Part shown: positions 1-3,000 of the stretch, in pieces
How positions within the stretch are numbered: the stretch's first letter is position 1
How the letters are laid out: every line of letters begins with the position of its first letter
DNA from: Escherichia coli
Lineage (GTDB): Bacteria; Pseudomonadota; Gammaproteobacteria; Enterobacterales; Enterobacteriaceae
Strand: one strand, 5' to 3'
NCBI RefSeq assembly: GCF_045037415.1
Contig: NZ_CP173438.1
Length of the DNA: 64,000 bases
Made by a program: the position numbers

Positions 1-3000
1 CTACTGCACTCGCCACTCCCAGAATTACGGTTGGTGACCATAAAGAACCAGCTAAAGCTGTACTCCTGTACTCAGTATATACACGACAACTTAATTTCGT
101 TTTCTCTATTTCATGCTCCACTCTTTTTACCGTTTCACTAACATCGGAAACATTTTCGATCACAAAACTCTTACGTTCATAAATAAGCTTGCTTAATGTA
201 TTTATATCTAAAAATTTCGCATCAAAAGAATCAATCTGTACTGTTTTTTCTTGTGCTGACATCTTCTTTTCCTGGCTGGTATGGCAAGTGACGGAGACAA
301 GAGAAACGTTTTAAGCTCAGTTATCTCCGCCATCACTTTCCACGAATGACAAGTAATTTTGCCTATTTTAAAACCATGCAAAAGGCAGGGTAAAAGGAGA
401 AAATTCGATCGAATCGATCGACAAAATCGATCATACATGATGAAGATTTTTTATCGAATCCATAAAAATAGTGACAGCTAACCGGCGTTGCAGGAACAGT
501 CAGAAATGGGCGTTTGGGAAAGAGCCATAGCACTACGTCGTCGCTGACATAGAGGAACTGTGCTTTGTTGATAAGATCCTTTATACGGCAACCAATCCAC
601 TGGACAAAAGATGAACTACGTAATCACCGGGTTCTCACTGACGAAATACAGAAGTTAATGACACAACTGTGCCATGTACCTTGTACAACAGCGGTGGAAA
701 GCTCTCAGAACAATGGAATTGCAGAAAGGTGTTAAAACGATGAAAGCCTTCATACCCAAATCGAATGTAAGAACGGCAGTAAAGACTGAATTGCGTAACC
801 TTGCAGTAGCTCGAGTATTACACTGCATAGTGTGCAGGGTTATCTCCCATCGAGAAAATATCGGCGCCAGCGAATAACGTCACCTTAGATGTAGCAGTTG
901 CCAAATAGTGACTCAAGGGCGGGCTTACCGCATACACTGACACTTAGCGGATCGACAGAATATTATTAGCAGATCATCACTGAACGCTACGTAATTATCG
1001 TAATAAAGGCTTTTTCTGGCTACCAGGAAGACCTGACATGGCTCTGCTCTGGAACCAGGCCGCAGGAAGCATCAATCTGGAGTTTATCAGCTACTGGAAT
1101 TCCGGTGTATTGGCAGCCCCTGATAATCACCTGACCCACGAAGAGCGCTCTGCTTTGCAGAAACTCTGGGGCGGTTTGGAGACAGGAGATGTAACGATTA
1201 TAGGACGTTCTGATGAAGTCCATGATTTTACCTCCGCCTTAATTAACTGTTTTCTTTCTGAAGAAGAAATTGTCTGGTGGCAATCAGGTGGCATTTTCCC
1301 GGATCCCTGGCCCGCTAATATATCCCGGCTGAACTGACGATTAACGCGATATTGCAAATATGGCATCTGAATCGATCATGATTTGGCGGCATCCATCTCC
1401 GTTCACAGTTTGGCATGCTTCCGATCATTGATTGGCATCCAGCCAGTCACTCCGGGAATTAACTCTTTTCACCGCAGTCTCCATTGCCGTGTTTAAACCA
1501 ATGGAGACGTCAATGTCCAAAAAGAGAAAATCCAGGAGTGATCCTACCCACGTAATGTGGACACGGCCCTAAGCGAGATTATGGTTTTCAAATTGTTCCG
1601 GGCTGAGAACCGCCACAACTCCTTCTCCTGCCCGGGCAAAGTGCCTGGTTCAGACAATGATATTAACTGGCTGAAATTTTCGACGCGGTACAGGTCTCCC
1701 TGCTTTGAAAGGTGCCTGGCGCTGCAATTTTTATCATTTGTTTTTGTATCCGGAAAAACACATCTGCAAGAATCATTATTCTTTTGCCTGAAGCTATCCG
1801 GCATACTCAGGCATTTCACGCTTTATGAGCTGACATCATCAAGATGCGCCAGTAATTTTTTATTAATGACTTCAAACAGTTCCTGTTCATCATGGGTCAG
1901 ATAACCCCAGATTTCTTTCAGATACATGCTTTGTGCAAGAGTGAGCCTCTGAATAAAAAACATACCTTCAGATGTCAGACTGATTTTTTTAGCACGGCGA
2001 TCCTCCCTGCTATCCATCCTTTTTACATATCCGGCTTTTTCTAAAAAATCTGTAATGCGGGTAATATTAGTTCTGGTAAACTGAAGTTTCTGGCTTATCT
2101 CTGAAGGTGACAGACAATGACTCTCCGCTGCGAATAATGTGGTGAGAACCATATATACTGAGTGATTTATTCCATACACCCCCAGAAATTCAGATATATT
2201 ATCCTGCATTCTTTTATTTGTGCGAATACAGAGTTGCATCAACAAATGCTCCCGAAAGGGATATGCGGGGTCTTTGTTTTTTTGGTGTCTGATTATTTTT
2301 TCTAATGTGTCTGTGTTATTCATTTCATTATTCTCCATATTACTGAAACACACTGTCTGTGTACAAGCGCGCATCAGTCATCCGGTAAACATCGACTTTC
2401 CACTACAATTTATTCCTGCCTGATTTCTGTATAACTGAGATATTCCTACACAGCAGACAGATAAATTCCCTCAGATAAAAGAACATAAATGCTGGCTGCT
2501 GACAAGTCTGTGAAAAAGGATTATCCATACTGCTCAGTAATCGCGGATCATTCACCAGCCCTCCGCCCGTCTGAAAGGTGACTTCCCGGGGCATCCCAGA
2601 TATCCACAACACTCTATCCGGCTCCGGATAAACCATTTATGGCAATATCATGAGCAGCGTTGCTGAACCAGATAGTACTCCTGGTTGTATCTTTGAAGAT
2701 TCACCATAGAGGCGACTGCCGATGGTCAGGTTTTGTGTACCTGCTTTGTACCATCTCATCGTTGTCTCTCCTGTGTCCACCCCGTTAACCGAAACAATGG
2801 AGTCCCAGCCATGCCCCAGACCAACCGAAAATTTCTTACCATGGCTGTATGTCGGAGTTGTATTTCTTAACAGCATAAAACGAATATTTGCAGGCACATC
2901 GCAAGACACAGAAAGAGTCTGAGCCGCATAATGATTATTAGCGCTATTAATAGACAGATCACCATGCTTTATTTCCAGAGACTGTGCAGAAGGACGGCAT

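Follow-up and report, generated by a model that had tools for sequence, protein, structure and literature searches.

A conserved GATC triplet in the promoter of the Tia/Hek/Hra adhesin gene of Escherichia coli is a candidate Dam-sensitive LysR-type operator

The GATC triplet and its promoter

The subject of this work is a cluster of three GATC (Dam) sites near the start of a 64,000-nucleotide stretch of Escherichia coli DNA (contig NZ_CP173438.1, assembly GCF_045037415.1), referred to as the window, together with the promoter of the Tia/Hek/Hra adhesin gene in which the cluster is located. Bases 1-1100 of the window are 100% identical to islands of UTI89-type uropathogenic E. coli, one copy of which adjoins a tRNA-Phe gene. 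The positions 407, 416 and 429, given for the sites in an earlier note on this DNA, are borne out by a listing of all GATCs, and the string quoted there, TCGATCGAATCGATCGACAAAATCGATCA, corresponds to window 405-433. The triplet is composed of the palindrome TCGATCGA, present twice at 9-bp spacing, followed by ATCGATCA; hence the three GATCs are not independent, as all derive from one short repeat.

The same note had regarded the triplet as the promoter region of a gene on the minus strand that starts at 262, ~150 bp downstream of the sites. The distance is correct, 145 bp separating the nearest GATC from the ATG of this gene, but the promoter is not native to it. When window 263-560 was compared by BLAST to 5426 complete E. 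coli genomes, 1670 contained a match, and most matches span only ~359-472, including the GATCs. Copies of this segment that are ~90% identical precede tia, hek and hra genes in many genomes, and the distance from the module to the start codon is 43 bp at tia- and hek-like adhesin genes in several unrelated flanking contexts. We therefore assign 359-472 to the Tia/Hek/Hra adhesin gene, whose native promoter and 5' region it represents, and the 122-residue open reading frame at 262 to an inserted cassette. Hek, Hra1 and Tia are adhesins/invasins of uropathogenic, meningitis-causing, enteroaggregative and enterotoxigenic E. coli. In most loci examined, a phosphoethanolamine transferase gene is found 3' of the adhesin gene.

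The module and the elements next to it are arranged as follows.

359-472, minus strand: conserved promoter module of the adhesin gene
429-432, no strand assigned: GATC-1, promoter-distal, ~-74 from the predicted transcription start
416-419, no strand assigned: GATC-2, ~-61 from the predicted start
407-410, no strand assigned: GATC-3, promoter-proximal, ~-52 from the predicted start
417-431, minus strand: putative LysR-type box and OxyR-like half site ATCGATTTTGTCGAT, of the form ATC-N9-GAT, centred at ~-66, with GATC-1 and GATC-2 at its ends
405-421, minus strand: 17-bp inverted repeat TCGATCG-ATT-CGATCGA, a segment resembling the upstream activating sequence of the std operon of Salmonella enterica, holding GATC-2 and GATC-3 at 9-bp spacing
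389-394, minus strand: putative -35 TTTACC, conserved in all copies including the divergent locus L133
365-370, minus strand: putative -10 TAAAAT, replaced by TAGAAT in some variants
363-377, minus strand: OxyR-like half site ATGGTTTTAAAATAG, scoring 7/10, overlapping the -10, 32 bp from the half-site position beside the -35
309-358, minus strand: 5' untranslated region of the ancestral adhesin gene, still present together with its ribosome-binding site (GGAG at 328-325)
1-308, minus strand: start of the ~616-bp inserted cassette with the 122-residue open reading frame (the full cassette is seen in contig L001, 5693-6308)

The -35 and -10 elements suggest a sigma-70-like promoter with transcription starting near 358. 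The GATC cluster is positioned just upstream of the -35, with the GATCs inside the putative LysR-type box and the inverted repeat. A position near -66 is usual for the recognition site of LysR-type regulators. Homology of the window to tia and hek loci ceases at ~309-315.

Conservation of the GATC sites

The triplet is the tightest GATC trio of the window, spanning 26 bp compared to 65 bp for the runner-up. The earlier claim of a clustering well above random expectation is not borne out by the window, however, as 12.6% of the trials that place 133 GATCs at random in 64 kb contain one or more triplets of 26 bp or less. Equally tight triplets are formed in the window by other palindromic tetramers (AGCT, 26 bp; GTAC, 24 bp; GCGC, 19 bp), and GATC is under-represented in the island, with 133 observed against 241 +/- 14 in shuffled sequences. 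That the cluster is not due to chance is instead argued by the conservation of the GATC columns, and not by the statistics within the window.

To avoid circularity, metagenome contigs were scanned with a 22-base, GATC-free anchor from the -35 to -10 segment, which returned 49 distinct homologous variants and one chance match. The GATCs and their spacing, 13/9 or 13/9/9, are kept in 47 of the 49 variants while the flanks vary. Individually, GATC-1 is retained in 48/49, GATC-2 in 49/49 and GATC-3 in 48/49. The number of deviating sequences per column averages 0.42 across the 12 GATC columns versus 8.73 across the 117 other non-anchor columns of the module, and columns with at most one deviant make up 12/12 of the former and 46/117 of the latter (Fisher p = 3e-5). 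Among the variable neighbours are the base preceding GATC-1 (T or C), the spacer (GT or AC) and a downstream T-rich stretch. The two exceptions are a GATC-1 changed to GATT (L006), in a locus where the adhesin gene has a premature stop, and a 9-nt deletion that removes GATC-3 (L032).

A second class of the module, here class 2, is ~75% identical overall to the first and differs by 9 inserted nucleotides, which bring in a fourth GATC and lead to the spacing 13/9/9. The bases right after the extra GATC vary in this class (GC, GT or AC), with the GATC itself retained. Further, a search of genome contigs by adhesin alignment returned six loci, and the locus L133, found via protein search and encoding an adhesin 63% identical, retains three GATCs in a different -10 context.

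Comparison with known Dam-controlled promoters

The nearest match to the triplet is the upstream activating sequence of Salmonella enterica std, where three GATCs lie in 25 bp at -242, -229 and -220, and where HdfR requires GATC-2 and GATC-3 in order to bind. Methylation prevents this binding, and HdfR in turn blocks Dam (PMC6735912). The printed std motif, acGATCa-N6-tcGATCgt-atcGATCta (PMC2328253), has atGATCg-attttg-tcGATCga-ttcGATCga as its counterpart in the window. The 13/9 spacing is identical and the sites follow in the same order relative to the promoter, i.e. the three-GATC geometry of std is reproduced, and the flanks are alike (middle site, tcGATCg; proximal site, tcGATC). From GATC-2 to GATC-3, the window is identical to std TCGATCGTATCGATCTA at 14/17 positions, in a comparison made to the printed motif and not to the full std sequence, and the GATCGTATCGATC of several class-2 variants agrees with std at 13/13. 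Both systems also serve a horizontally acquired surface adhesion factor. The match suggests HdfR as the regulator.

OxyR is the second candidate; like HdfR, it is a LysR-type protein encoded in the core genome. Half sites were scored out of 10 against the OxyR consensus ATAGnTnnnAnCTAT, two of which at a spacing of 22 or ~32 bp would be expected for an OxyR tetramer. The agn43 site, used as a control, was recovered by the same scan; as a further control, the top hit of the scan in the window precedes a probable ucl operon, for the promoter of which an OxyR site is published (see below). The half site at 417-431 scores 7/10 in the window and 8/10 in the 4-GATC class, the latter representing the ceiling when both ends carry GATC. 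The scores and spacings compare as follows.

Window, 3-GATC class: half sites of 7, 4 and a further 7 over the -10, spaced 22 bp, then 32 bp
Class 2, 4-GATC: half sites of 8, 8 (abutting the -35) and 7 (over the -10), spaced 31 bp and 32 bp
agn43 control: half sites of 8 and 8, spaced 32 bp

As judged from these scores, OxyR is plausible as the regulator of class 2 and weaker as that of the window's class 1.

Several established Dam/OxyR systems show partial likeness to the module. As in the window, agn43 (flu) has three GATCs in a short interval and a 13-bp pair within a half site of the form ATCG-N7-CGAT (agn43, GATCGTTTATATCGATCGAT; window, GATCGATTTTGTCGATCGAT), and both control an island-borne outer-membrane adhesin or autoaggregation factor. 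It differs by its 19/13 spacing, by the location of the site downstream of the transcription start, where OxyR represses, and by two 8/10 half sites 32 bp apart, compared to 7/10 and 4/10 in the window. The gtr and opvAB regions (Salmonella and P22, modifying lipopolysaccharide) also resemble the module, with 13-bp GATC pairs in half sites upstream of and abutting the -35, alternative half sites of which one overlaps the promoter, GATCs conserved in an otherwise variable regulatory region and targets that modify the surface. In gtr, 13-bp GATC pairs lie inside single validated OxyR half sites, and the 4-GATC class is similar to gtr in having three half sites at 31/32 bp. Unlike the window, gtr and opvAB contain four GATCs, placed either singly or in two separated pairs, and the half sites of the 3-GATC form are poorer. 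The mom region of phage Mu, for which OxyR control is taken from the literature, contains three GATCs spaced 18/13, equal to 13/18 on the other strand, compared to 13/9 in the window.

The pap switch, located in the same island, is likewise a Dam-dependent control of an adhesin. It has two GATCs 102 bp apart in Lrp sites, PapI as a cofactor and an unrelated sequence context, and a pap-type Lrp/Dam switch is not found at the triplet, where the spacings are 9 and 13 bp and not 102.

Related elements in phages and Yersinia

Viral contigs were scanned with a 20-nt core of the operator. Lambdoid contigs with KilA-N and NinG genes (L138, L141, L143 and L146, and also L139 and L144) carry GATCGATTTTACCGATCGATAnnATCGCATyGATC, which is 33/35 identical to the class-2 core and has three GATCs spaced 13/18, as in the mom region of phage Mu on the other strand. 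In L141, the element (3198-3232) is placed right after the apparent terminator of the KilA-N gene, ~1.2 kb upstream of ninG. BLAST of the element to a collection of annotated phages gave no match. The presence of a common core in lambdoid contigs and in the adhesin operator suggests that they have a trans-acting factor in common.

In Yersinia similis (L135), a homologue with 40% identity to the adhesin is preceded by three GATCs spaced 13/18, ~190 nt upstream of the start codon. These are contained in two OxyR-like half sites 31 bp apart at 1236-1270, scoring 7/10 and 8/10. This arrangement hints at Dam-linked control of the adhesin family beyond E. coli.

Proposed mechanism and alternative explanations

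Considering the conservation of the sites together with the comparisons to known switches, we propose, with confidence slightly above even, that the triplet is a Dam-sensitive LysR-type operator in the adhesin promoter, and that competition between Dam and the regulator renders the surface genes phase-variable. Following replication, Dam and a LysR-type protein, HdfR or OxyR, would compete for the hemimethylated operator. Full methylation would exclude the protein, bound protein would block methylation, and the outcome would be heritable OFF and ON lineages with phase-variable surface-gene expression. The protein-bound, unmethylated state is more likely ON, a direction that is weakly indicated by the operator being upstream of the -35 in an activator position, as in std, opvAB and the AB site of gtr. 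In agreement with the targets of known Dam switches, the downstream genes alter the cell surface.

The idea of a Dam-regulated promoter, already put forward in the earlier note, is accordingly retained in part and on indirect grounds, namely the conservation of the GATCs and their spacing, their position before the -35, the std match and the OxyR/LysR-type half site; the clustering statistic, the gene proposed as the native target and the link to papX (see below) have to be given up.

Several observations weigh against the proposal. A triplet this tight is expected in about one of eight windows of this kind. It is the entire ATCGAT-rich core that is conserved and not the GATC bases alone, and what is selected could be a protein site that contains GATC only incidentally; moreover, all copies originate from E. 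coli and close relatives and are therefore not phylogenetically independent. The GATCs of std (-242 to -220) are ~170 bp further upstream of the promoter than those of the window (~-74 to -52), and the std system also requires a feedback loop through the operon-encoded StdE/StdF, no counterpart of which is seen here. For the 3-GATC class, the second half site scores 4/10 and the best tetramer 13/20, a value equalled at ~30 other positions of the window, for which reason OxyR is not well supported in this class. Finally, the openly accessible full texts searched, among them papers on Hra1/Hek, methylomes and phase variation, do not connect hek, hra or tia with Dam, OxyR, HdfR or phase variation; matches to 'HEK' concerned human HEK-293 cells, and a paper on the ST131 methylome contains no site list.

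Alternatively, the operator may be independent of methylation, with a regulator that reads the ATCGAT or TCGATCGA palindromes and GATC being only part of the recognition sequence. Such an operator would account for the conservation of non-GATC core bases (the CGAT after each GATC) to the same degree as the GATCs, and the 17-bp inverted repeat at 405-421 has the typical size of a dimer operator. E. coli is Dam-positive, however, and each of the sites would therefore present N6-methyl groups in the major groove just where the regulator is proposed to read. The nearest match, std, is methylation-sensitive, and the same applies to OxyR sites in which the GATCs are arranged in this way. We consider this form of the operator clearly less probable than the Dam-sensitive one.

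An effect of SeqA alone, i.e. recruitment after passage of the fork that briefly silences the promoter once per cell cycle without heritable states or a dedicated factor, appears improbable. SeqA requires at least two hemimethylated GATCs within ~31 bp. The three sites of the triplet lie in 26 bp at spacings of 9, 13 and 22 bp, with the outer pair 22 bp, or about two helical turns, apart, compatible with a putative SeqA cluster of two or more GATCs on one helical face; SeqA is also an ancillary factor at opvAB. SeqA alone would not account for the conserved ATCGAT flanks, for the LysR-type box, for a geometry that matches std exactly or for the fourth GATC that is kept in class 2.

Similarly improbable is the absence of any function, in which a 9-bp GATC unit duplicated by slippage has spread with a recently disseminated module. 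The in-window p of ~0.13, the polymorphic copy number of the 9-bp unit (2, 3 or 4 GATCs) and the close relationship of the island sequences would all fit, but the GATC columns are far more conserved than the others (p = 3e-5), both classes keep the sites despite ~75% overall identity, and the core is common to unrelated lambdoid contigs.

An IS10-like, methylation-modulated promoter with a -35 TCGATA (457-452) and a -10 TATGAT (435-430) overlapping GATC-1 reaches 9/12 in a consensus scan and is rejected as very unlikely, as its -10 varies in other variants (CATGAT, CACGAT, ATATCG) while the downstream promoter is conserved. A terminator or RNA hairpin, suggested by a scan that gives a 7-pair stem from the inverted repeat (421-405, minus strand) followed by the T-rich tract ATTTTCTCCT, is rejected as the least credible explanation, since the fold is no stabler than shuffled sequences (z = -0.8), the T-tract varies (AAAACATTCC, GGTTGTAACC), a comparison to Rfam gives no match and the upstream neighbours differ between loci.

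Returning to the Dam-sensitive operator, a wider scheme can be formulated, which we hold more tentatively and at somewhat less than even confidence. According to this scheme, a so far unrecognised switch of Dam and a LysR-type protein (HdfR or OxyR) would, in ~30% of E. coli, impose phase variation on the Hek/Hra1/Tia/Hes adhesins and on the phosphoethanolamine transferase encoded beside them; a 9-bp insertion or deletion would convert the 3-GATC form (half sites 22 bp apart) to the 4-GATC form (31 bp) and thereby retune the switch, and the core would be reused by lambdoid prophages.

The regulation of Hek, Hra1 and Tia is essentially undescribed in the literature searched, and the operator represents a new candidate for an established switch principle, the principle itself being well known. 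If the proposal is correct, expression of the adhesin, and perhaps of the neighbouring phosphoethanolamine transferase, differs from cell to cell within a clone, with consequences for adhesion and invasion assays, the choice of vaccine antigens and the reading of knock-out phenotypes. The operator would then be an E. coli counterpart to the HdfR switch of Salmonella std, and one island would hold three separate Dam-linked adhesin controls, i.e. pap with Lrp, probably ucl with OxyR, and the triplet operator.

Inserted cassette and neighbouring genes

The genes flanking the module in the window are the following.

ATG at 262, running off the window start, minus strand: 122-residue open reading frame, WP_001275822.1
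996-1337: pseudogene of a yeeP-like GTP-binding protein, between the triplet and papX
1823-2374, minus strand: papX, with the pap operon on the same strand

In the window and in UTI89, homology to the adhesin loci passes the ribosome-binding site, breaks for ~616 bp and resumes at a second GGAGATAAYTGA directly before the hek ATG, GGAGATAAYTGA being duplicated at both junctions. From this break between the ribosome-binding site and the hek ATG we conclude that the cassette was inserted there, and hence that the promoter now reads into the 122-residue open reading frame first and then, possibly, into hek.

The 122-residue protein was assigned to no family in the curated Pfam and NCBIfam collections, and only a weak PHROG match of unknown function was obtained; a single hydrophobic stretch suggests a membrane segment. 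Relatives of the open reading frame are present on F-type plasmids (117 residues, 69% nucleotide identity), and in the plasmid pRHB40-C01_2 one such relative is positioned downstream of the 4-GATC form of the module. The plasmid homologues were considered as a clue to its role and set aside as uninformative, located as they are among insertion sequences. Downstream of the open reading frame, UTI89 encodes a 246-residue beta-barrel outer-membrane protein, a phosphoethanolamine transferase and a large helicase/PLD protein. The 246-residue protein is 64% identical to a protein named Tia by the NCBI annotation, and we take it to be Hek/Hra1. A locally encoded regulator was also considered, but the neighbours in one locus type, a WYL-domain protein and an H-NS paralogue, are not LysR-type.

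On the other side, papX, which the earlier account had placed immediately next to the triplet, is 1.4 kb away and separated from it by unrelated sequence, i.e. the yeeP-like pseudogene and an apparent remnant of an insertion sequence, the latter judged from translations of open reading frames at ~565-900 that resemble an integrase core. In K-12, yeeP is directly upstream of the agn43 regulatory region; unlike in the K-12 order, no agn43 sequence follows the yeeP-like pseudogene in the window.

Other GATC arrangements in the island

The best match of the window to the OxyR consensus is at 20523-20599, with half sites of 7, 10 and 7 out of 10 spaced 31 bp apart, the perfect one being ATAGATTGCACCTAT. 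Three GATCs occur in this region, at 20535, 20584 and 20597, and the second and third are separated by 13 bp within one half site, as in gtr. The region is located 75-150 bp upstream of a minus-strand fimbrial operon with its ATG at 20448, and this operon (16568-20448) is probably ucl. Binding of OxyR at the ucl promoter has been shown experimentally, in a study with no mention of GATC or Dam (PMC9236248); Dam-dependent switching of ucl may therefore have been overlooked.

GATCs at 11198 and 11300 (11198-11303) are exactly 102 bp apart, corresponding to the classical spacing of the proximal and distal pap sites, and would be expected between papI and papB. A stretch of 7,255 bp (3162-10416) that covers the structural genes of pap contains not a single GATC, compared to 26 expected from a first-order Markov model, while CATG and GTAC occur 26 times each. 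Similarly, the fimbrial operon at 16568-20448 has two GATCs versus 13.6 expected. Avoidance of GATC thus appears extreme inside fimbrial operons that adjoin Dam-related regulatory regions. The runner-up to the triplet as the tightest GATC trio is formed by the sites 59959, 59980 and 60020 (59959-60023, 65 bp), inside a GATC-rich stretch at 58.4-60.0 kb.

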